Assembly (NCBI GenBank): GCA_963820525.1
Contig: CAWGAA010000003.1
Span: 608,001 to 672,000, forward strand
Direction of reading: 5' to 3'
DNA: 64,000 bases
Origin: an uncultured Spirochaetota bacterium
GTDB lineage: Bacteria > Spirochaetota > Spirochaetia > SZUA-6 > Fen-1364
Shown: positions 52,446 to 61,448 of the stretch, piece by piece
How positions within the stretch are numbered: position 1 is the stretch's first letter
Layout of the letters: every line of letters begins with the position of its first letter
Notes under the pieces: model-generated
What the model was told of the DNA's origin: nothing
The model's input: only the letters and a program-made list of their open reading frames with translations
Database searches by the model: none
Made by a program: the position numbers and the translations under genes

Positions 52446-53552
52446 ATGAAAGCGATTTCCCTGACTGCCGGAACCACTTCGATCGAGCTTGCCGAGCGGC
52501 CGGTGCCGGCCGTCGCCGCGGAGAGCGAGGTGAAGGCCCGTGTCATACGGGTCGGCATCTGCGGCACGGATCGGGAGGAGGCGGCGGGTGGCCGCGCAAA
52601 GCCTCCTGAAGGAAAGAGCGGGCTCGTCATCGGGCACGAGATGCTCGGCCGGGTGGTGGAAACGGGGAAATCCGTCACACGCGTGAAAACGGGAGACCTC
52701 GTGGTCTTCACGGTGCGGCGCGGCTGCGGATCCTGCCTGCCCTGCGCCATGAACCGCTCCGACATGTGCCTCACCGGAGGCTACAGGGAGAGGGGGATCT
52801 GGGGCCTGGACGGCTACCAGACCGAGTACGTGGTGGACTCCGAGGGCTATGCGGTACACGTGCCTGAGGAGCTTGAGGCCGCGGGGGTGCTCACCGAGCC
52901 GTTGTCCGTGGCGGAGAAGGCGATAGACGAAGCGGTGCGGATCCAGACCTCACGCCTGCCCGAATCCGCGGCGCGGCCGTTCTGGCTCCATGGCAGGCGC
53001 TGCCTTGTGGCCGGCCTCGGGCCCATCGGCCTCCTGGCCGCGATGAGCCTGCGCCTGCGAGGCGCCAAGGTGTTCGGGCTGGACATCGTGGATGCCGGAA
53101 GCACACGTCCCCGCTGGCTTTCCCGCATCGGCGGCACATACCTGGATGCCCGCACGGTCCCGCCGGACAAGGTGGAAAAGACGATGGGCGGCATGGAGCT
53201 CATCCTGGAGGCGACGGGCGTGGCAGCCCTGGAGTTCAACCTCCTGGATGCCCTGGACACGAACGGGATCACCATGCTCACGGGGATTCCCGGCGGCGAC
53301 AGGCCGCTTCAGCTCCAGGGCGCCGAGCTGATCCGCAGGCTTGTTCTAGGAAACCAGGTCATGGCGGGCAGCGTCAACGCCTCCCGCGACCACTTCCAGA
53401 TGGCGGTGGACGACCTCGAGCGGGCGCGCACCCGCTGGCCCGGCCACGCGGAGCTTCTCATTACGAACCGCCATCCCTATGGAGATTTCGGCAAGGCGCT
53501 CGCAAGCCACGAGCCCGATGAAATCAAGGTGACAATCGAGTGGGCACGCTAA
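52446..53552 (+). CDS. Zn-dependent glucose 1-dehydrogenase
   Basis: GICGTD, GHE, VRRGCGSCLPC, ERGIWGLDG, GLGPIG, GSVNA. Confidence 0.85.
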   Translation: MKAISLTAGTTSIELAERPVPAVAAESEVKARVIRVGICGTDREEAAGGRAKPPEGKSGLVIGHEMLGRVVETGKSVTRVKTGDLVVFTVRRGCGSCLPCAMNRSDMCLTGGYRERGIWGLDGYQTEYVVDSEGYAVHVPEELEAAGVLTEPLSVAEKAIDEAVRIQTSRLPESAARPFWLHGRRCLVAGLGPIGLLAAMSLRLRGAKVFGLDIVDAGSTRPRWLSRIGGTYLDARTVPPDKVEKTMGGMELILEATGVAALEFNLLDALDTNGITMLTGIPGGDRPLQLQGAELIRRLVLGNQVMAGSVNASRDHFQMAVDDLERARTRWPGHAELLITNRHPYGDFGKALASHEPDEIKVTIEWAR

Positions 53553-53568
53553 AGAGAAAGGAAATGCA

Positions 53569-55995
53569 ATGTCCGAAGAGATAAGATTCGCCCCCGGCTG
53601 GCCCGGAATCGCCCCCCGCTGGACATCGAGCGCCAAGCAGGGGGTCGGCTCCTCCCTCAACCCGGCGAGCCGCGTTTGGTTCAGCGTGAGCCACGGGATC
53701 TTCAACGAGATCTACTACCCCCGGGTGGACCAGGCCTGCACCCGCGACATGGGGATGATTGTCACCTCGGACGACGGCTTCTTCTCCGAGGAGAAGAGGA
53801 GCGCGGAGCACAAGGTTTCCACGCTCGCGTCCGGCGTGCCGGCGTACGCGCTTTCCAACACAAGCGTCGACGGCCGCTACAGGATCGACAAGGAGGTGCT
53901 CACGGACCCCTGGCGGGAGGTGCTGCTGCAGAACACCCGCTTCACGGCCCTCACGGGGGCCCTGGGGAGCTACCGCCTCTACCTGATTCTCTCCCCGCAC
54001 ATTGCCAACAGGGGCTGGGGGAACACGGGCTGGCTGGGAGACTATAAAGGGGTCGAGATGCTCTTCGCACAGCGCGAGGGGACCTGCCTGGCGCTGGCCT
54101 GCTCCTGCCCCTGGCTGCGCCGTTCCGTGGGGTTCGTCGGCTCCTCCGACGGCTGGCAGGACTTGAGCCGAAACAAGCGCCTGACGGCGGTCTGGGACCG
54201 CGCGGAGAATGGAAACATTGCGCTCACGGCCGAGGTGGACCTCGCCTCCTCGAAGGGCGAGTTCGCGATCGCCCTCGGGTTCGGGGGCAACGCGGCAGAG
54301 GCGGGAAACCGCGCCCTGGCAAGCCTCGCCGACGGCTTCGATCACGCTAAGAGCCAGTACATCGCGGAGTGGCAACAGTGGCAGGAGCGCCTTTCATGGC
54401 GCGATGAGAGGCCGCGGGGCGAGAGCGGCCGGGATCGGTCAGCCGACATGCTTCGGACCAGCACCGCGATAATCCACGCCCATGAGGCGAAGAACTTCCC
54501 CGGAGGGATGATCGCGAGTCTCTCGGTCCCATGGGGCTTTTCCAAGGGAGACGATGACCTGGGAGGCTACCACCTGGTGTGGCCGCGGGACCTCGTTGAG
54601 ACGGCCGGGGGGATACTGGCGGCGGGGGGAACGGAGACGGTGGCCCGCGTGCTGCACTACCTCCAATCCACCCAGGAGCCGGACGGTCACTGGCCGCAGA
54701 ATATGTGGCTGGACGGGACGCCATACTGGTCGGGCATCCAGATGGACGAGACCGCCTTCCCCATCCTTTTAGTGGATCTCGCCTTGCGGCAGAAGGCGAT
54801 CGATGCGCATGAGCAGACGCGCATGTGGAGCATGGTGCGGCGCGCCGCCTCGTTCATCGTCCAAAACGGGCCGGTCACCCAGCAGGACCGCTGGGAGGAA
54901 GACCCCGGCTACTCCCCCTTCACTCTCGCGGTGGAGATCGCCGGCCTCCTGTGCGCGGCCGACATGGCGGATGTCCGCGGAGAGGCGCCCATTGCGCGGT
55001 ATCTCCGGGAAACGGCGGACTCCTGGAACGACGCGGTGGAGCGCTGGATCTACGCCGTAGGGACGGACCTTGCCCGAAAGCTCGGGGTTGAAGGCTACTA
55101 CGTTCGGATCTCTCCTCCCGATGTTGCCGATGCCCCCTCTCCAGCGGGAGGGTTCGTGCCGATCAAGAACCGGCCTCCGGGACAGGGCGTGGAGAGCGCC
55201 ACCCATATCGTGAGTGTCGATGCCCTGGCCCTTGTGCGCTTCGGGCTTCGGGCCGCGGACGATCCCAGGATCGTAAACACGGTGCGCGTCATTGATACGC
55301 TACTGAAGGTGGAAACGCCATCCGGCCCGGCCTGGCACAGGTACAACGACGACGGCTACGGAGAGCATGCCGACGGATCTCCGTTCGACGGAACGGGGAC
55401 CGGGAGGGCCTGGCCCCTCATCACGGGAGAGCGGGCGCACTACGAGCTTGCCGCCGGCCGCAAGGCCGAGGCGGAGAAGCTCTGCCGGGCCATGGAGGCA
55501 TTTGCCGGAGACGGCGGGCTGATCCCCGAGCAGGTATGGGATTCCGCCGACATCCCCGAACGCGAGCTTTTCTTCGGCAAGCCTTCGGGGTCCGCCATGC
55601 CCCTGCTCTGGGCGCACGCCGAGTACATCAAGCTTCGCCGCTCCATCTCTGACGGGAAAGTATTCGACATGCCGCCCCAGACCGTGAAACGCTACCTCGT
55701 CAATAAAACACATTCTCCCTACGCGGACTGGCGGCTGAACCAGAAGTGCCGTTTCATTCCGGTTGGAGAGACATTGCGCGTCGAGCTGCTCCAGGCCGCG
55801 CAGGTCCACTGGAGCACGGACGAGTGGAAGCACGCCCAGGACACGCAGACAAAACCAACGGGTCTCGGCGTTCACGTCGCCGACATTCCCACGGCGGATA
55901 TGCCCTCGGGCACCCGGATCGTCTTCACCCTCCGCTGGGCGGAGACCGGTTCCTGGGAAGGAACCGATTTCCGCCTGGAGGTGAGCGGAGGGTAG
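53569..55995 (+). CDS. Glucoamylase / glucodextranase (GH15) with C-terminal CBM-like domain
   Basis: IASLSVPWG, YHLVWPRD, QMDE, QDRWEE, RYNDDGYG, IPEQVW, SAMPL.WAHAEY. Confidence 0.9.
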   Translation: MSEEIRFAPGWPGIAPRWTSSAKQGVGSSLNPASRVWFSVSHGIFNEIYYPRVDQACTRDMGMIVTSDDGFFSEEKRSAEHKVSTLASGVPAYALSNTSVDGRYRIDKEVLTDPWREVLLQNTRFTALTGALGSYRLYLILSPHIANRGWGNTGWLGDYKGVEMLFAQREGTCLALACSCPWLRRSVGFVGSSDGWQDLSRNKRLTAVWDRAENGNIALTAEVDLASSKGEFAIALGFGGNAAEAGNRALASLADGFDHAKSQYIAEWQQWQERLSWRDERPRGESGRDRSADMLRTSTAIIHAHEAKNFPGGMIASLSVPWGFSKGDDDLGGYHLVWPRDLVETAGGILAAGGTETVARVLHYLQSTQEPDGHWPQNMWLDGTPYWSGIQMDETAFPILLVDLALRQKAIDAHEQTRMWSMVRRAASFIVQNGPVTQQDRWEEDPGYSPFTLAVEIAGLLCAADMADVRGEAPIARYLRETADSWNDAVERWIYAVGTDLARKLGVEGYYVRISPPDVADAPSPAGGFVPIKNRPPGQGVESATHIVSVDALALVRFGLRAADDPRIVNTVRVIDTLLKVETPSGPAWHRYNDDGYGEHADGSPFDGTGTGRAWPLITGERAHYELAAGRKAEAEKLCRAMEAFAGDGGLIPEQVWDSADIPERELFFGKPSGSAMPLLWAHAEYIKLRRSISDGKVFDMPPQTVKRYLVNKTHSPYADWRLNQKCRFIPVGETLRVELLQAAQVHWSTDEWKHAQDTQTKPTGLGVHVADIPTADMPSGTRIVFTLRWAETGSWEGTDFRLEVSGG

Positions 55996-55999
55996 ACTT

Positions 56000-58900
56000 C
56001 TACTGGTCGAAATACCCCACGATCGTGTTGGCATGGTTGGTCGAGGTGGGCTGGTAGTTGGTCTCATTCCACACATCCTGGGCCGTCAGGTTCTGGTAGA
56101 GGTCTGCATTGACCGAAATACTGATCGGAATGTTGTTCTCGAGGAGAGTCTTCAGTATCGTAATCTGCGCAGCGGAAGTTATGTACACACTATACGCCAT
56201 GCCATAATCCCCAGCTGCCGGGATGTTGCTCCTGTACAGCGGCGCCTCTCTCCACGCCGCTTCGGATGGCCAGGAGGTCTTGTCGGTATCATAGTAAGGG
56301 AAAGTCTGCCAGCTCGCCGCCCCGATGTTGGAGAGAATGTCGGTATTGTCCGTCGAGTACGATCCCGTGTCCGCGCCTCCGTTGATCTGATGGTAGACGA
56401 AGTTGGGGCTGAAAAGCTTGTCCTGCATGCTGTCGGGCTGATGCGGCCATGAGCCTATCATCTTCACGGTGGAGAGGTCCCAGTTGTGCTCGAGGGCTTC
56501 CTGGAATGTCTTGATGTAGTACGTGGTGGACCAGGACGCGCAGGAGCCCTGGGACCCCTGGTTTCCGATGGGCGGGAAGGATTTCAAAGCGCTCAGGTCT
56601 ACAGAGAGCGGCGCGCCGAGGGGCCCGCCCGATTTCAGGGAATCCACGATCCGGGTCGTTTGCTGGATCCGCGCCCACTGCTCCTCCGTGGGAGGCCGCA
56701 GGCCCGTGCCGTGACCGTTGATGATCTTGTTGTAGTTCTTTCCCTTCTCCGCCACGCCGATGATTCTTTTCATCTGGCTGAGCTCGGCATCCGTCATGCG
56801 GTGCGAATTGACGAGGTTCGCGATCCTGGACTGCCCAACCAAGCTGAGCGCGAGGGGCGACGGCGTTCCGACGATTCCCGCTGTATAAATGTCGGCGTAC
56901 ACGGTGCCGCCATCAACCGTGCTCATGGGAAGCGTCGAATAGGATGCATAGGTAGCTTTTGTCCCTCCATACGTTGTGTATTTCTCGAGGGTGAAAGAAT
57001 TGATCGACCCAATGTCAGGATTTGCGTTGCTGTCGGTAACCTTGAGGAACAGATCGTAGCTATTGATATCCGCAGCGAACTCGGAAATGTCGAGGGCCAT
57101 GACGTTCGAGGGGAAAGCGATGGCATCGCCGGTTATTCCATAGTTGTAGAAGGTCTTTGTCTTGAATGGCGTGGTGTGAGAGCCAAGGCCAACGACGATG
57201 GTGCAGTCGCCCTTCTTTGGATGCGTGATGCCAAATGTCACAAGAAGCGTGGGATTATAGGCGGCCTTGTCCTCGAAGAACAGCGCATACATGCTGGCAT
57301 TTATAACAGCTTGGTACGTGATGAAGTAGAAGCCATCCTGGATGTTCTCCCACTTCGCCGTTCCATCGTTTGCCCCCCACGAGTTGGCCACCTTGAAGGT
57401 TCCAACCGGAGAAGGAACGACAAACGGCACGTTCGACCAAGCCGAATCGTTTCCTGATGGGCCGACTGCCTTCACCCTGTACCAGCGCTGCTGCCCCGCA
57501 GTGATGCCGGTGGTCTGGTCGTAGGAGACCACGTTCGCGCCGACCGTTGTCAAAGCGGCAAACCCGGTTGTTCCCGAGGTGGTGCTCGTTTCAATGCCAA
57601 AGCCCGTCTCACCCGTGGAGTTGTCTGTCCATGCGAGATGGACCGAGCTGGCGGTGGGGGCGGTAGCCGTGAGGTTGGTCGGCGCGGGCAGCGCCTGCGT
57701 CGTCGTCGCGCTCGGGACGTTGGACCACAGGGAATTGTTGCCCGCCGAGGCATTTGCCCTGACTCTGTACCAGTACGTCGTATTGCCGCTCAAGCCGGTG
57801 TTGGTGTACGTGGTGATGTTGATCGCTGTCGTTGTCACCAGGGCGAAACCGGTTGTGCCGCTCGTGCTGCTGCGCTCGACCCTGAACCCGCTTTCAGCGG
57901 TAGAGTTGTCCACCCAATCCAGCTTGATCGAGGTCATTGATTGCACGCTCAGAGTCAGGCCGGTGGGTGCCTGCAAGAGCGTCTTGGCACTTGCTGTGCT
58001 GGACCATGCCGAATTGTTCCCAGCCGGGCCCGCCGCGCTGACCCTGTACCAGTATGTCGTATTGACGCTCAGGCTTGAGGCATCTGTGTATGTCGTGGCG
58101 TTCGCCGCTGTCGTGGTAACGAGGTCGAACCCGCTGGTAGAGCCAGTGGAGCTGCGCTGCACGATGAATCCGGTCTCGTTGGCCGAGTTGTCGGTCCACG
58201 CGAGACTGATCGAGTCAGGGCCAATGGCCGTTGCCGTAAGGCCCGTGGGATTCAAGAGGAAGGTTGCCGCGCTCGCCGTGTTCGAATACCCGGATGGGCC
58301 GCCGGCGTTTGTCGCCTTGATCCTGTACCAGTAGATTGTGCCGGCGCTCCCGTTTGTGTCATTGTATGAGACCGCGTTTGCGGCAATGGAAGATGAGACC
58401 TCGCTGAAGCCCGTCGTGTCGGAAACCGAGCTTCTCTCCAGAGTGAACCCCGTCTCGTTGCCTGAGTTGTCGGTCCAGGTGAGGTCTATCTCATAGGAAG
58501 AGCTTGCGGTCGCGACAAGGTTCGTGGGTGCCGCTGGAGGCGTGACGGAGGTGGTAGCGGTGGCAACGTTCGACCATGCTGAATCGTTGCCCGCGGTGCC
58601 CGCGGCCTTGACCCTGTACCAGTAGGGTGTGGTGGCGCTCAAGCCGGTCGTGTCCGGATAGCCGGTGGTGTTGGCCGCGAGGGCGGCTATCTGGCTGAAG
58701 CCCGTTGTACTGGAAACGGCGCTTCGCTCGATTATGAATCCCGTTTCATCGGTTGAGTTGTCGGTCCACGTTAGGTTTATGGACGTTGCACCCGAGGAAG
58801 TGGCGACAAGGTTGCTCGGCGCATTCGGAACCACCGCGGGCGTCGTTGCGCTTGCGGTATTGGAGTAGGCGGATTTTCCGTCGCTTCCGACCGCCCGAAC

Positions 58901-59197
58901 ACGGAATGAATAGCCGGTCTGCGGGGTAAGCCCGGTGGCGAGGTATTGCTTGGCGTCCGCCGCCGTTGTCCCGAGCAGCGAGAACTGGCCTCCGGTCGCG
59001 CTCCCCTCCACTTCGAATCCGCTCTCGTTGTCCGATTTGTCGCTCCACGAAAGCTGAACCGACGTGGCAGAGACGCCGGTTGCCGTCAAGCTGTCAGGCG
59101 CCGCGGGAGGATTGCTGCTGGGGGTCGGGTTTGGACAGCCTGAAAAGAAAACAATCGAAAGGATCAAGAGGAGAATGGCCGCTTTGTTTTTGGACAT
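56000..59197 (-). CDS. Lipoprotein with six fibronectin type III repeats and a circularly permuted papain-family (C1) cysteine peptidase
   Basis: FSGC lipobox; six repeats W.DxS..E.GF...YRV.A; FKVANSWG precedes NQGSQGSCASW and the C-terminal NHANTIVGY. Confidence 0.85.
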   Translation of the reverse strand: MSKNKAAILLLILSIVFFSGCPNPTPSSNPPAAPDSLTATGVSATSVQLSWSDKSDNESGFEVEGSATGGQFSLLGTTAADAKQYLATGLTPQTGYSFRVRAVGSDGKSAYSNTASATTPAVVPNAPSNLVATSSGATSINLTWTDNSTDETGFIIERSAVSSTTGFSQIAALAANTTGYPDTTGLSATTPYWYRVKAAGTAGNDSAWSNVATATTSVTPPAAPTNLVATASSSYEIDLTWTDNSGNETGFTLERSSVSDTTGFSEVSSSIAANAVSYNDTNGSAGTIYWYRIKATNAGGPSGYSNTASAATFLLNPTGLTATAIGPDSISLAWTDNSANETGFIVQRSSTGSTSGFDLVTTTAANATTYTDASSLSVNTTYWYRVSAAGPAGNNSAWSSTASAKTLLQAPTGLTLSVQSMTSIKLDWVDNSTAESGFRVERSSTSGTTGFALVTTTAINITTYTNTGLSGNTTYWYRVRANASAGNNSLWSNVPSATTTQALPAPTNLTATAPTASSVHLAWTDNSTGETGFGIETSTTSGTTGFAALTTVGANVVSYDQTTGITAGQQRWYRVKAVGPSGNDSAWSNVPFVVPSPVGTFKVANSWGANDGTAKWENIQDGFYFITYQAVINASMYALFFEDKAAYNPTLLVTFGITHPKKGDCTIVVGLGSHTTPFKTKTFYNYGITGDAIAFPSNVMALDISEFAADINSYDLFLKVTDSNANPDIGSINSFTLEKYTTYGGTKATYASYSTLPMSTVDGGTVYADIYTAGIVGTPSPLALSLVGQSRIANLVNSHRMTDAELSQMKRIIGVAEKGKNYNKIINGHGTGLRPPTEEQWARIQQTTRIVDSLKSGGPLGAPLSVDLSALKSFPPIGNQGSQGSCASWSTTYYIKTFQEALEHNWDLSTVKMIGSWPHQPDSMQDKLFSPNFVYHQINGGADTGSYSTDNTDILSNIGAASWQTFPYYDTDKTSWPSEAAWREAPLYRSNIPAAGDYGMAYSVYITSAAQITILKTLLENNIPISISVNADLYQNLTAQDVWNETNYQPTSTNHANTIVGYFDQ

Positions 59198-59384
59198 ATT
59201 GCCTCTCGTTTCGAATGAGCGCTTAAGAGAATTGTAGCACGCAAAATGTCTGATGTCTAAGCAATGATGCACAAACAACAGCAGCATGGCGATCGGCCCC
59301 GGTTTTTATCTGACTAAAACGGTCAGAGTCACGTTTGGAGGCAACTGGATCTGCCACGAGTTTGTCCCGCTCGCACCGGAGGCG

Positions 59385-59520
59385 GCAAGGTAATAGAGGT
59401 TCGATGCCCTGGGCATGACTCCTTGCGACAAGTCGGTCAGGACCGTGGGGCCGACGAGGCTCACGCGATAGTAATAAGTGGTGCTGGGAAGAAGGCCGGA
59501 ACGTCAGTGAACGTTGTGGC
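59385..59520 (-). pseudogene. Frameshifted FN3 repeat remnant
   Basis: Minus strand reads ATTFTD / SGLLPSTTYYYRVS across a frameshift, with no start codon context. Confidence 0.55.
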
Positions 59521-59585
59521 CGAACCGCTTTAGACCTGGGTGTCGTAGCTTAGCAAACGCGCGGGACGACTCCGTGAGGAAATGA

Positions 59586-59617
59586 GACGCCTCCGCGCTT
59601 GAAAGCGCGGAAGCGTC
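59586..59617 (-). terminator. Hairpin, putative terminator of the 59634-61235 gene
   Basis: GACGCTTCCGCGCTT-TC-AAGCGCGGAGGCGTC stem-loop just past the stop codon. Confidence 0.6.
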
Positions 59618-59633
59618 ATCTTTGTGAACGAAC

Positions 59634-61235
59634 CTAAGGTACTCGAATGCCTTTCGTTGATGGAACCGAGGGAGCGACAGGGGCGGAACCGCGTCCGCTC
59701 ATCACATCATTAAGATATTTCGTCAACGCATTAAGCAGCGTGGGCTGCTTGGTGACGACGACTGGGGAAAGCTGCTGGAAGCGCATATCTTCAGGAGTTC
59801 CCGGGAAGGACTCAGAAGACCCTACTGATGCGATAAACCCTGTCAGGCCACCGAAGCCGCCCGTATTGTAGAGATATTCGATAGTGTAGGTGTTGAGATA
59901 GAATTGGAAGTAATAGTTTGGATTGGAGTAGTAATAATAGCCTTCAATCCAGTTATCGGAGGAGTTGAAGCCGGTGTAGAGATGTGAGGAATACTTCCAA
60001 GCCACAAGAGAGCTTACTGAGCCACTTATGACCTGCTGAATTGTGTAATAACCGGTTGTATCGATCAGCAGCCTCATGTAATTATTGCCATCGCTGTAGT
60101 TAAAGATAACCCCATAGCCTTGTGTCGAATTGCCGCTCACCTTATGCATGAATGACGAGAGGGAAATTCCCGTAGACATGTAAGATCCAGTGATATACGC
60201 CAGAGCTACAGTGCCCAGTTTGGAGCTATCATTCGTTGCCCAGCGTATATAGCTGTTACCATCGTCTACCCATGCAATGGTTCCCGTGGGAACAGCGGAC
60301 ACATATGCAGACTTAGACGCGCTTGGGCCGGCGGAGTTCGATGCCTGCACTTTGTAGTAGTAGTAGGTTCCAAGAGCCACTAAGTTATCAGTGTAGTATG
60401 TTGAGCTGCCGGAATATACTTGGTTAGTGAACGACCCGCCAGAGCTCGTATCGCGGAACAGCTGATACGTGTCAGCGGTAGAAACCGAGTCCCAGCTCAA
60501 GGTCAATGCCGTCGCGGTGTTGCTGGATACATTAAGCCCGGTTGGGGTGTCGGGCGGCACGACACCACTTGTCGTCGTCCCGCTGACAGGTGGTGTTGAG
60601 TATGCGCTTGTCCCGTAGGTGTTTGAAGCGGCAACTTGATAGTAATAGGTTGTCGAGCTGCTAAGGCCGCTATCCGTAAAATACGTCGAGGCCCCAGTGT
60701 ATATCGTGCTGAAAGAACTGGGTGAGCCGATGGCCCGCTGTACAGTGTAGCTCGTTGCGCCAGAGGAGGCATTCCAGCTCACGTACAGCGATATTGAGGT
60801 TGGGCTTCCGACGGCAAGGCCGGTTGGAGTAGCCGGAGCTGACCCTCCCCCCGTGCTCGCCCATCCTTCGGCAGGGTTGCTTTTAGATCCTTCCTGATCT
60901 TTCGAGTTTACGCCAGAGACCTTGTAGAAGTAATGAGTCCCGGCGCTCACGCCCGTTCCGGTTATCACCGCGCCGGTAGTTGTTACGTCTCCGCTCAGCT
61001 GTGAGTAGAGTCCAGTCGCTGACGTCGCCTCATAGACGTAATACTTGACCGCATATTGGGCTGTATTCCAGGAGAGGTCGATCGCATCAGTCACAGTTCC
61101 CTGAGTCGCTACAAGCCCGGTCGGTGCTGCCGGAGTGGTGTCCTGCTCCTGCTGAGAACCCGCTTTCTTACAAGAAAGCGCAACGGAAGAAATGGATATG
61201 ATGATGATTGCTAACTTCAAAAGTCTCTTTTTCAT
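59634..61235 (-). CDS. FN3 repeat lipoprotein (3 FN3 + beta-sandwich domain), lower GC
   Basis: ALSC lipobox; PAAPTGL, PATPTGL and PDTPTGL repeats; Ser/Thr/Tyr-rich. Confidence 0.85.
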   Translation of the reverse strand: MKKRLLKLAIIIISISSVALSCKKAGSQQEQDTTPAAPTGLVATQGTVTDAIDLSWNTAQYAVKYYVYEATSATGLYSQLSGDVTTTGAVITGTGVSAGTHYFYKVSGVNSKDQEGSKSNPAEGWASTGGGSAPATPTGLAVGSPTSISLYVSWNASSGATSYTVQRAIGSPSSFSTIYTGASTYFTDSGLSSSTTYYYQVAASNTYGTSAYSTPPVSGTTTSGVVPPDTPTGLNVSSNTATALTLSWDSVSTADTYQLFRDTSSGGSFTNQVYSGSSTYYTDNLVALGTYYYYKVQASNSAGPSASKSAYVSAVPTGTIAWVDDGNSYIRWATNDSSKLGTVALAYITGSYMSTGISLSSFMHKVSGNSTQGYGVIFNYSDGNNYMRLLIDTTGYYTIQQVISGSVSSLVAWKYSSHLYTGFNSSDNWIEGYYYYSNPNYYFQFYLNTYTIEYLYNTGGFGGLTGFIASVGSSESFPGTPEDMRFQQLSPVVVTKQPTLLNALTKYLNDVMSGRGSAPVAPSVPSTKGIRVP

Positions 61236-61304
61236 AATAAACCTCCATTTACTGCAAAATCTTCGATGTTGAACCTTCTCTAGTATTAGCTGAGACCGGA
61301 TATG

Positions 61305-61332
61305 ATTATACCACAGCTCTTTTTGCTGTCAA
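61305..61332 (-). promoter_or_regulatory. Consensus sigma70 promoter for the FN3 lipoprotein
   Basis: TTGACA-N16-TATAAT with extended -10 TGn. Confidence 0.75.
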
Positions 61333-61448
61333 ATTATTTCGACAATTGCTGCGTTTTTTTCGAAATATCACGATTTTTTCGGCCGCCGAAACCGGCGAAC
61401 CGGGATTTGGAGTCCTGCTTTGCCGAAATGCTGTTCGCCGTCGGACAC

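Follow-up and report, generated by a model that had tools for sequence, protein, structure and literature searches.

The window analysed here, a stretch of 64,000 nucleotides from an uncultured Spirochaetota bacterium, holds a gene that raises a simple question: can a papain-family (C1) protease carry its catalytic residues in a rotated order, and is this order a true circular permutation? The initial annotation of the locus had reported Asn, then Gln/Cys, then His within one open reading frame, and this order proved exact when the motif positions were checked by translation. Along the chain the residues come as Asn, Gln, Cys, His, a departure from the usual C1 order Gln, Cys, His, Asn. As both halves are homologous to canonical C1 proteins, the protein has to be considered a permuted relative of the family rather than a typical member. 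The gene and its segments are listed below in window coordinates.

56000..59197, minus strand: complete gene, beginning probably at M31 and including the stop codon (open reading frame list and translation)
59135..59197, minus strand: signal peptide with the lipobox-like end MSKNKAAILLLILSIVFFSGC (sequence pattern match; Cys51 is the putative lipidated residue)
57419..59098, minus strand: six tandem FN3 domains, the stalk (Pfam fn3, E 1e-38, 6 stretches)
57257..57418, minus strand: relocated C-terminal part of the papain fold, aa 624-677, with the FKVANSWG Asn strand, then two strands and a helix
57383..57385, minus strand: Asn635, third residue of the catalytic triad (translation; conservation)
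56861..57256, minus strand: accessory beta-sandwich domain, aa 678-809 (all-strand with high pLDDT in the AF2 model)
56813..56860, minus strand: linker, aa 810-825, between the end of the beta domain (old C-terminus) and the beginning of the pro-like segment (old N-terminus)
56615..56812, minus strand: pro-like segment, aa 826-891, with the conserved motif GHGTGLRPPTEEQW (homology and conservation)
56003..56614, minus strand: Gln/Cys...His part of the papain fold, aa 892-1095, which stops 10 residues past the catalytic His
56558..56560, minus strand: Gln910, oxyanion-hole residue (translation; conservation)
56540..56542, minus strand: Cys916, catalytic nucleophile (translation; conservation)
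56033..56035, minus strand: His1085, catalytic base (translation; conservation)
56000..56002, minus strand: stop codon, four bases from the end (55995) of a convergent GH15 gene

The frame is a single unbroken one (56000..59287, minus strand, 1095 aa), open upstream of 59197 as far as 59287. Its likely start is M31, with the ATG at 59197 and GAGAGG 5 nt upstream; the first Met of P0002, a homologue with 72% identity, is equivalent to M31, and the ends of the two proteins match. The FKVANSWG motif is encoded at 57374-57397 on the minus strand, and the protein terminates with NHANTIVGYFDQ, followed by the stop at 56000-56002. The gene is single-copy in its own genome. Among the 40 relatives' genomes examined, a permuted homologue was found in 0 of the 24 that belong to the same family, and a partial match in one genome (G016) corresponded to a different, canonical C1 gene. 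The gene is part of a low-GC two-gene insert, and the shift in GC content coincides exactly with its 3′ end; no tRNA marking the insert was found between 50 and 64 kb in the window.

The earlier description of the module as carried by a lipoprotein with six FN3 domains agrees with the six fn3 stretches found by Pfam and with the lipobox-like pattern. The FN3 domains start at aa 64, 157, 254, 347, 441 and 536, five of these starts coming from a motif scan, and that of the fifth domain (aa 441) having been placed by eye from the translation. The sole NCBIfam match concerned a model that covers the FN3 region; it scored far under the cut-off and was not retained. With a signal peptide and a lipobox containing the invariant Cys, the window protein is a putative lipoprotein. 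A lipobox-like N-terminus was present in 45 of the 52 permuted relatives that start with M, versus 6 of 150 canonical ones; these do not count as independent events, since all permuted proteins fall in a single clade. The minimal permuted forms, P0187 and P0143, have nothing but a lipobox and a short linker ahead of the protease module.

We inspected 231 relatives out of 3120 matches. Sixty of them were permuted, with the order Asn strand and beta domain, pro-like segment, Cys..His that had been proposed for the window protein, and the other 171 had the opposite, canonical order (pro-Cys-His-Asn-beta). In all 60 permuted proteins, which are 35-72% identical, the module ends 0-12 residues from the C-terminus. 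The Asn and beta stretch and the Cys..His stretch each match canonical relatives, in opposite order: the Cys..His halves of the two groups aligned with E 1e-108 and 45% identity (hhalign), and the upstream, Asn-containing half matched canonical relatives with E 1e-21 to 1e-34. The segment at aa 624-677 has its counterpart, in canonical relatives, in the stretch C-terminal to the His strand and, in xylellain, in residues 241-278. The beta-sandwich is homologous to the domain located behind the protease in canonical relatives; in Foldseek it gave weak matches to lipoxygenase and lipase domains of the PLAT type. Among the 231 proteins, neither a tandem duplicate nor a split intermediate was found. 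We concluded that this is a real natural circular permutation, homologues existing in both orders and each segment having its counterpart. On the strength of the sequences, the Asn-Gln/Cys-His arrangement is not due to chance, both halves being homologous in swapped order and 59 further proteins, on many contigs, being built alike.

The position of the cut could be traced in the loop that joins the His and Asn strands. In canonical proteins the distance from VGY to xNSWG is 19-21 residues in 139 of the 141 proteins scored. The C-terminal tails of permuted proteins retain the beginning of this loop (DDNMSSQ, DDNFNGSL), and the N-terminal side retains GAFKVANSWG. As read from these remnants, the cut is located in the His/Asn hairpin loop; together with the canonical relatives, this bears out the initial proposal of a cut between the two strands followed by a swap of the halves. 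The linker that joins the old ends (model residues 201-216) has a pLDDT that drops to 63 in block 201-210 and stands at 91 in block 211-220, and the length of this gap differs between permuted relatives.

The retention of the whole triad and of the oxyanion Gln, as claimed for the window protein, extends to 59-60 of the 60 permuted rows. Gln and Cys are each conserved in 60/60 permuted and 171/171 canonical rows, His in 59/60 (one gap, in a truncated row) and 171/171, and Asn in 59/60 and 152/152.

Results were less direct with family profiles. Pfam Peptidase_C1 (PF00112) scored 22.7 bits on the window protein for a cut-off of 20.7 and covered profile positions 2-175 of 220 only, so that the Asn-strand part of the profile is missing at the C-terminus. 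Two partial Peptidase_C1 matches had been expected, and this expectation failed: Pfam misses the short Asn piece when it is taken alone, no family being found on the 187-residue Asn and beta piece even with E values as high as 10. PDB sequences, searched with a single sequence, yielded nothing at E up to 1. A profile built from 46 permuted proteins matched xylellain (3OIS) with E 2.5e-6 and in swapped order, profile positions 307-347 falling on chain 241-278 and positions 591-740 on chain 69-205, the individual stretches of this swapped match being weak (i-Evalues 0.035 and 1.9). The same profile matched cathepsin K with E 2.6e-7, at chain residues 3-33 and 122-174. Because PF00112 gave no match at E 0.01 in the canonical relatives P0116, P0031 and P0015, a structural control was used for the canonical form instead of Pfam coverage.

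The AF2 model was confident (pLDDT 89.2, pTM 0.91) and, as anticipated, gave a papain fold, with VIA Z scores of 13-16 overall against C1 structures. Mature papain-family chains matched with Z 13.3-14.3, model residues 283-486 lying on chain residues 1-172 only; ficin D, for instance, gave Z 13.4 over this stretch. For the canonical control P0203, Z was 21.4, with model residues 95-349 on chain 1-219. Permuted and canonical models contain the same predicted secondary-structure elements in rotated order. When the Cys..His part and the Asn and beta part were predicted as two chains, ipSAE was 0.95 and the best of 3 controls 0.00; the ipSAE mark is reached by 116 of 157 solved complexes versus 2 of 215 mismatched pairs, and halves of a known fold can pass it through likeness to solved structures. 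The runs shared at least 92% of contacts, and the pLDDT of the partner was 87. The lowest-error contacts join residues 478-483 with 22-25 (model numbering, i+j near 504). His476 and its two neighbours are absent from the residues predicted to touch the partner, in which 474 and 478-486 are present. The Asn strand is predicted to pair antiparallel with the His strand, the new N-terminal strand beside the new C-terminal one. The packing of the NSWG strand against the His strand, on which the first reading of the locus depended, was thus recovered in the two-chain prediction.

Taken as a whole, the locus is best explained as encoding a surface lipoprotein with a circularly permuted C1 protease, most likely active, mounted on an N-terminal lipid anchor and a six-FN3 stalk; we give this reading a probability of about 0.8. 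The canonical sister group has a signal peptide, the pro-like segment, Gln/Cys...His, a hairpin loop of roughly 20 residues, the Asn strand and the beta-sandwich. Compared with it, the chain of the window protein is opened in the His/Asn hairpin loop and its old ends are connected by a linker, so that the Asn strand and beta-sandwich lead and the His strand comes last. The fold is predicted to reassemble within one chain, the Asn strand lying antiparallel beside the His strand. Since Gln, Cys, His and Asn are conserved as in canonical relatives, the product is most likely an active protease, which would work outside the cell at the tip of the stalk.

What the permutation is for is a more tentative matter. 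A papain-type zymogen loses its N-terminal prosegment on activation, so that a module of canonical order, if attached behind an N-terminal lipid anchor, would then free itself. By analogy with zymogen prosegments, the pro-like segment may occlude the active site. A cut at the pro/mature junction would then yield a two-chain enzyme that is still anchored, the stalk being joined to the Asn half and this half belonging to the mature fold. Placing the Asn strand and beta domain ahead of the prosegment would fasten the stalk to something that persists in the mature enzyme, autocleavage at the junction would leave a non-covalent two-chain protease on the cell surface, and the prosegment, still tethered nearby, might serve as a reversible inhibitor. 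One permutation event would have founded the clade of lipoprotein proteases, which later spread across phyla. That the permutation solves in this way the topological conflict of an anchored zymogen, and was for this the founder event of the clade, is a possibility that we put forward with reserve, the whole of it having less than an even chance. The support for the activation idea consists of structural likeness to zymogen propeptides and of the association with lipoprotein anchoring.

Alternatively, it may be that permutation and activity are real and that there is no zymogen step, the pro-like segment being a permanent structural part of a single-chain enzyme. The permutation would then merely have shifted the point of attachment of the accessory domains. 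The conservation of GHGTGLRPPT..W is like that of catalytic residues (Gly860, Gly862 and Trp871 are each found in 60/60 permuted rows) and above that of most propeptides, and the pLDDT of the segment in the AF2 model is 90-94, both of which fit a structural role. Yet the place of the segment in the sequence is that of a propeptide, immediately ahead of the mature N-terminus, and in canonical relatives it comes directly behind the signal peptide. In both models, moreover, it aligns with the C-terminal part of the prosegments of procathepsin K, L and X and of propapain, and with the N-terminal region of xylellain, and its inclusion raises Z for the canonical control from about 21 to 24-25. We regard an enzyme with no zymogen step as a serious alternative that is nevertheless somewhat doubtful.

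It is improbable, by comparison, that protomers complement each other, one supplying the Asn half and another the Cys..His half, in an active domain-swapped dimer or chain. The two halves are about 200 residues apart (beta domain and linker), and their strong predicted binding as separate chains means that assembly in trans is physically possible; against this, the single-chain model is compact and confident (pTM 0.91), and the linker is sufficiently long in 60/60 permuted proteins. That the gene is decaying, or that its product is a binding module devoid of catalysis, a reading for which the location inside a low-GC insert might speak, is still harder to reconcile with an intact frame and with four catalytic residues conserved across 60 proteins of such diversity (35-72% identical), and we hold it to be very unlikely. 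An assembly artefact, or a C1 gene truncated where a chimeric junction falls at 56000, its upstream NSWG being a coincidence, could be suspected from the change in GC content exactly at the 3′ end of the gene and was among the concerns raised at the outset, but it has practically no chance of being right and was ruled out by public-run contigs that bridge the junctions, by the same order and the same C-terminal end in 59 other proteins on many contigs, and by the homology of the upstream half with canonical relatives (E 1e-21 to 1e-34). The bridging contigs, from two studies, cross all three junctions with no joints; they span 55700-56109, 55922-56209, 57243-57476 and 57269-57451 with 0-1 differences, and the site of the stop codon is bridged by X1 record 1 and X2 record 7 with no differences. 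Run X3 contributed no contig here.

The origin of the permuted protease was then considered through trees. In a concatenated tree of 30 permuted and 40 canonical rows, the two forms are divided by one branch (SH-aLRT 99). With an outgroup, the tree uniting the permuted rows lay 61 log-likelihood units above the free quick tree (p-AU 0.989). When the Cys..His half was used by itself, a fast tree of all 231 rows required 3 changes of order, and the free outgroup-rooted quick tree placed the permuted rows in two groups, a split that is likely a long-branch effect; both were superseded by the concatenated tree and the constrained-tree test. The permutation seems to have had one origin and to have then spread between bacterial phyla, the permuted clade having members in Spirochaetota, Thermotogota, Halanaerobiales, Cloacimonadota, Riflebacteria and deltaproteobacteria. 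Database names of its members range from “C1 family peptidase” (e.g. in Mesotoga) to “Two component regulator three Y domain protein”. The initial annotation had asked whether this subfamily was already described: a literature search found no description in print of a permuted C1 enzyme, and the group seems to be undescribed and widespread in bacteria.

Few enzyme families have been studied as much as the papain family. The permutation found here within family C1 is natural, conserved and widespread, and a close canonical sister group is at hand. Such closely related permuted and canonical groups make a clean pair for studying how far a fold tolerates re-threading. The His/Asn hairpin appears as a permissive break point, consistent with two-chain cathepsin L, and the idea is raised that zymogen activation can be reconciled with N-terminal anchoring. 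Some permuted members belong to named Mesotoga species, and since these are cultured, experiments are feasible. For annotation, it matters that domain models truncate on permuted proteins or miss them. The papain family core is treated as invariably canonical in reviews, as worded in the accessible part of one of them (PMC10318531), and a 2023 survey of the C1 family, in its accessible part, set multidomain prokaryotic members aside, unanalysed (PMC10380794).

The closest known proteins are those of the canonical sister group, named ‘C1 family peptidase’ at NCBI, such as P0031 (from a Latescibacteria MAG), P0203, P0015 and P0116; the source names of the database relatives indicated no studied member. 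They share with the window protein the same segments at 40-50% identity (the pro-like GHGTGLRPPT..W, Gln/Cys...His, FKVANSWG and the beta-sandwich) and the same catalytic residues. Their order, in contrast, is pro-Cys-His-loop-Asn-beta, with the module N-terminal behind an ordinary signal peptide and followed by C-terminal accessory or sorting domains (T9SS tail, PKD, dockerin, FlgD-Ig), whereas the window protein has the rotated order, the module at its extreme C-terminus and a lipobox anchor at its N-terminus. The best structural match is xylellain from Xylella fastidiosa (PDB 3OIS), a short C1A peptidase of bacterial origin whose solved structure includes the N-terminal region. Z was 16.3 with the model of the window protein and 25.0 with the canonical control, and the N-terminal region of xylellain aligns with the pro-like segment; xylellain differs in having the canonical order and a single domain, without beta-sandwich or stalk, and identity is about 20%.

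Cwp84 of Clostridioides difficile has a surface-associated C1A domain, then a lectin-like domain. It is thus also a bacterial surface C1A protease whose catalytic domain is followed by a beta-rich accessory one, but in canonical order and with another mode of anchoring. It was not among the structural matches listed. Cwp84 is cited in the accessible part of the 2023 survey (PMC10380794).

In two-chain cathepsin L (PDB 1ICF, 1MHW), the 175-residue heavy chain ends just past the His strand, and model residues 283-486 of the window protein lie on heavy-chain residues 1-173 with Z 14.2-14.3. The light chain of cathepsin L carries the triad Asn. Its break is post-translational and its gene order canonical, whereas in the window protein the break is encoded in the gene and the old termini are fused. 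Cathepsin L shows that a break of the chain in the His/Asn loop is tolerated by the papain fold. In the accessible part of PMC10318531, natural circular permutations are described for NlpC/P60-like, LRAT, PPPDE, OTU-type and LupA proteins, with papain-like core and catalytic residues preserved. As described there, these concern distant families of the superfamily, in which the Cys helix has moved, alone or with beta1′, or strands 3-5 are rearranged, and cluster I (papain, cathepsins) retains the canonical structure. The permutation of the window protein differs from these in that it affects family C1 itself, its cut separating the His strand from the Asn strand.

The protease is encoded by an uninterrupted minus-strand ORF (56000..59287, 1095 aa, from the ORF list and translation). 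Met31, at 59197, is by its sequence context the likely start codon; GAGAGG lies five bases 5′ of this ATG, and P0002, the closest homologue among the matches listed (72% identity over the 486-residue protease module), has as first residue the Met equivalent to Met31. Read from there, the protein is MSKNKAAILLLILSIVFFSGC, a signal peptide with, by sequence pattern, a lipobox-like Cys at its end, followed by six FN3 domains (Pfam fn3, E 1e-38, six stretches). Six linker residues separate the sixth FN3 from FKVANSWG. The motif order reported in the initial annotation, Asn, then Gln/Cys, then His, and its coordinates were exact upon translation:

57374-57397, minus strand, FKVANSWG
57383-57385, minus strand, Asn635
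56558-56560, minus strand, Gln910
56540-56542, minus strand, Cys916
56033-56035, minus strand, His1085, ten residues ahead of the stop

The Pfam Peptidase_C1 match (22.7 bits, cut-off 20.7) spans aa 893-1092 and stops at position 175 of the 220-position profile, having begun at position 2, so that the last 45 positions, those of the Asn strand, are missing from the C-terminus. Two partial matches to this family had been anticipated; the short Asn piece alone went undetected by Pfam.

Misassembly, raised as a concern at the outset, was rejected: Logan contigs from public runs bridge all three junctions and, more tellingly, the arrangement is common to 59 other proteins on other contigs. The 3′ end and stop are bridged by X1 record 1 (55700-56109) and X2 record 7 (55922-56209), the FN3/Asn-strand junction by X2 record 11 (57243-57476) and X5 record 18 (57269-57451, different study, one difference), and the beta-domain/pro-like junction by X2 record 10 and X5 records 14 and 15, with no joints and no indels in these bridging contigs. 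Only X5 is independent support, because the source sample itself may lie behind X1 and X2. The C-terminus of P0002 is identical to that of the window's protein (NHANTIVGYFDQ).

A search of 1.84 billion cluster representatives with the module gave 3120 matches at E <= 1e-3 and 451 at E <= 1e-30; another 515 matches, 120 of them listed, came from a word-indexed search. We classed 231 proteins by separate searches with the Asn plus beta half and the pro plus Cys..His half. The window's order was found in 60 of them (the 59 others being homologues of the kind the initial annotation proposed to look for), all 60 with the module ending 0-12 residues from the C-terminus and with a median of 435 residues N-terminal to it. 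The remaining 171 are canonical: their pro plus Cys..His part begins at median residue 48, and past the beta domain they continue for a median of 512 residues. Canonical examples have the layout signal peptide, ..MTDxEFxxLKxxIGxYxxGKNYNxxIxGHGTGLRPPTxxxW.., FPPIGNQxxxGSC.., NHANTIVGYDDNYGPYTExGxxxxYGAFKVANSWG, beta domain, and a tail, for instance a T9SS sorting domain. The canonical module can also be internal, as in P0106 (1866 aa; module at aa 437-882), which has an S8 serine peptidase domain as well, so an N-terminal position is not universal. In P0033, P0045, P0058, P0069, P0080 and other canonical relatives, an insert of about 170 residues interrupts the beta-sandwich match; PF20773 is the precomputed Pfam assignment for these five and others with the insert.

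The two orders locate the breakpoint. In canonical order, the VGY-to-xNSWG loop measures 19-21 residues in 139 of the 141 proteins where both motifs were found. Permuted proteins stop 2-13 residues past VGY, many retaining the loop start (DDNMSSQ, DDNFNGSL, DDSMSR), and on their N-terminal side GAFKVANSWG is retained directly after unrelated N-terminal domains. As loop remnants lie on both sides, the chain was opened within the His/Asn hairpin loop, where the cut had originally been placed. The old termini, N-terminal ..HRMTDAELSQMKRIIG.. and the C-terminal end of the beta domain, are now connected by a linker whose length varies. A long-branched permuted subgroup (P0158, P0163, P0180, P0187, P0189, P0199, P0209, P0214-P0218, P0223, P0225, P0230) has a conserved 11-13-residue C-terminal tail past VGY, of the type KEGxxWxxxxPDx.

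A search of PDB sequences with a profile built from alignment A1 (46 permuted proteins) also gave matches in swapped order. Cathepsin K was matched at E 2.6e-7 (chain 3-33 by profile 576-606, chain 122-174 by 728-779) and xylellain at E 2.5e-6 (chain 69-83 by 591-605, chain 120-205 by 656-740), with the earlier profile stretch 307-347 falling on xylellain chain 241-278 (..FRIRNSWG..DGYFWMPYEYI..); taken singly, the stretches of the swapped match are weak (i-Evalues 0.035 and 1.9). In profile-profile comparison of the permuted and canonical sets, the pro plus Cys..His halves align at 45% identity (E 1e-108), and the alignment ends at the permuted C-terminus while canonical rows continue beyond.

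Folding of the module by AF2 with A1 gave a mean pLDDT of 89.2 and a pTM of 0.91, with strands at model residues 21-25 (FKVAN) and 476-484 (the His strand); xylellain, procathepsin K and propapain were the top Foldseek matches. With a sequential aligner, xylellain reached Z 16.3 (model 239-486) and mature papain-family enzymes Z 13.3-14.3 (ficin D, 13.4), always with model 283-486 on chain 1 to ~172 and 167-170 residues aligned. The control, a minimal canonical relative (P0203, 484 aa, folded with 45 canonical rows; pLDDT 88.0, pTM 0.89), aligned over whole chains: ficin D at Z 21.4 (model 95-349 on chain 1-219, 208 aligned), xylellain at Z 25.0, and procathepsin K at Z 24.0 (model 58-348 on 69P-215). 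The permuted model therefore lacks the last ~45 residues of the papain fold in sequential alignment. Both models have the same secondary-structure elements, in rotated order. The beta-sandwich (56861-57256, minus strand) gave weak Foldseek matches (E ~1e-3, ~130 columns) to PLAT-type domains of lipoxygenases and pancreatic lipases.

The Cys..His part (283-486) was then predicted as a separate chain with the Asn/beta half (15-216) as partner, the pro-like segment being omitted because it could otherwise drive binding. The ipSAE was 0.95 (runs 0.96, 0.95, 0.95), compared to 0.00 for the best of three controls; among solved complexes 116 of 157 reach this mark, and among mismatched pairs 2 of 215, and halves of a known fold may pass through likeness to solved structures. 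Contact agreement between runs was at least 92%, and partner pLDDT was 87. The lowest-error contacts (480 with 22-25, 479 with 24-25, 481 with 23-25, 483 with 22-23, 478 with 24-25) form a predicted antiparallel ladder with i+j near 504, so the NSWG strand is predicted to pack against the His strand, as the initial annotation supposed. Trp28 would face His476, and residue 478 would face Asn26. In papain, His159 faces Trp177, and Asn175 precedes that Trp by two residues and shares its face; by this analogy, the predicted register of the module is that of papain. The predicted interface includes Cys307 and residues 297-302; His476 is absent from the residues named as touching the partner.

All four catalytic residues, triad and oxyanion Gln, are retained in the window, as first noted, and in 59-60 of the 60 permuted rows (Gln 60, Cys 60, His 59, Asn 59), both misses being gaps (the row that lacks His is truncated). 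NSWG has its Ser in 58 of 60 rows and its Trp likewise in 58. Canonical rows have Gln, Cys and His in 171/171 and Asn in 152/152. Conservation is just as strict in the motif of the pro-like segment (aa 826-891), where Gly860, Gly862 and Trp871 are each found in 60/60 permuted rows. This segment lies directly N-terminal to the mature start; in canonical relatives it comes immediately behind the signal peptide. The second half of the segment is aligned, for both models, to the C-terminal portion of the procathepsin K, L and X and propapain prosegments as well as to xylellain's N-terminal region, which brings ~30 more aligned residues and 3-4 more Z units in the canonical control. A permanent structural part would also fit, and the very high conservation of GHGTGLRPPT..W agrees with such a role. 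By position and model likeness the segment is propeptide-like, its inhibitory action or removal being putative.

Permuted and canonical proteins probably differ in anchoring. A lipobox-like N-terminus (an uncharged stretch then [GAS]-Cys, within the first 45 residues) was found in 45 of 52 Met-starting permuted proteins versus 6 of 150 canonical ones; the seven exceptions mostly resemble truncated gene calls. This counts as one association, not many independent ones, because the permuted proteins are one clade. Domains between anchor and module vary widely (FN3 in the window, InlB-type B-repeats, BACON, others), and minimal forms (P0187, P0143) consist of lipobox, Pro-rich linker and module only. 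The data show or predict a complete papain-type active site at the far end of a lipid-anchored stalk, put together by the module's first and last strands. We infer that the window's protein would be an active extracellular protease, held latent by the pro-like segment. Cutting at the pro/mature junction would give two chains, held together as in the two-chain prediction, and the Asn half would retain the Cys..His chain on the cell. A canonical module behind an N-terminal anchor would, in contrast, release itself upon activation.

In a tree of both halves concatenated (30 permuted and 40 canonical rows: a random sample, five permuted rows that broke away in the fast tree, and the window's protein), one branch separates the orders (SH-aLRT 99). 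The fast tree of the Cys..His half alone (231 rows) has three order changes, of which well-supported branches force only one. With an outgroup of five canonical C1 genes from related genomes, a free quick tree splits the permuted rows; a tree keeping them together gains 61 log-likelihood units over it (p-AU 0.989). A single origin is the better reading of these sequence trees, though their rooting is not secure. Among the 231 proteins we saw neither a tandem duplicate nor a split intermediate. In a same-order genome, a permuted homologue is split into adjacent frames of 313 and 209 aa (L004/L009, G033:C426:2894-4242) overlapping near query residue 318-321, which is a frameshift or broken copy.

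Among 80 loci from species-representative genomes (taxa from record titles), the permuted order occurs in 26 and the canonical order in 49, while 5 loci are partial. All permuted loci are from bacteria (Leptospirales, Spirochaetia/Spirochaetales/Treponematales, Kosmotogales/Petrotogales/Mesotoga/Thermotogaceae, Halanaerobiales, Cloacimonadota, Riflebacteria, and L079, a "delta proteobacterium" locus at 58% identity); L086, with halves 2 kb apart, is doubtful as permuted. Canonical loci include Bathyarchaeia, Thermoplasmata, Methanomicrobia, Bacteroidota, Ignavibacteria, Calditrichaceae and Neomarinimicrobiota. The window's genome has one copy; a permuted homologue was absent from 24/24 same-family genomes and present in three same-order genomes (38-41% identity). 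GC is 0.43-0.64 over exactly two FN3 lipoprotein genes (56000-61400), with flanks at ~0.65. The protease gene was likely acquired by transfer, and the low-GC stretch, which has no tRNA gene close to it, points to an acquired insert of two genes. The upstream neighbour in this stretch (59634-61235, minus strand) encodes a second lipoprotein (MKKRLLKLAIIIISISSVALSC..) with two Pfam fn3 stretches and a Tyr/Gly-rich C-terminal domain of ~210 residues matching no Pfam family. Glucose dehydrogenase-type and GH15 glucodextranase/glucoamylase genes (52446-55995, plus strand) are convergent with the protease gene, the GH15 stop lying four bases from the protease stop.

We conclude that this circular permutation inside family C1 is genuine and conserved. 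The papain-like superfamily has well-documented circular permutations (NlpC/P60, LRAT, PPPDE, OTU-type, LupA); a review covers these and states that cluster I, with papain and the cathepsins, keeps the canonical structure (PMC10318531). A phylogenomic survey left multidomain prokaryotic C1A proteins unanalysed, and "permut" is absent from its text (PMC10380794). The literature outside subscription journals, MEROPS not covered, gave nothing else relevant on permuted papain-family, C1A, cathepsin or Peptidase_C1 proteins, or on permuted proteins of Mesotoga. Permuted proteins are already in public databases, where Mesotoga prima and M. infera entries, for instance, are annotated as "C1 family peptidase" or "Two component regulator three Y domain protein". 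Permutation within family C1 has apparently been undescribed so far, and it offers a testable functional rationale. Two-chain cathepsin L provides a precedent for a tolerated break in the His/Asn loop: residues 1-173 of its 175-residue heavy chain align with module model 283-486, and its light chain carries the triad Asn.
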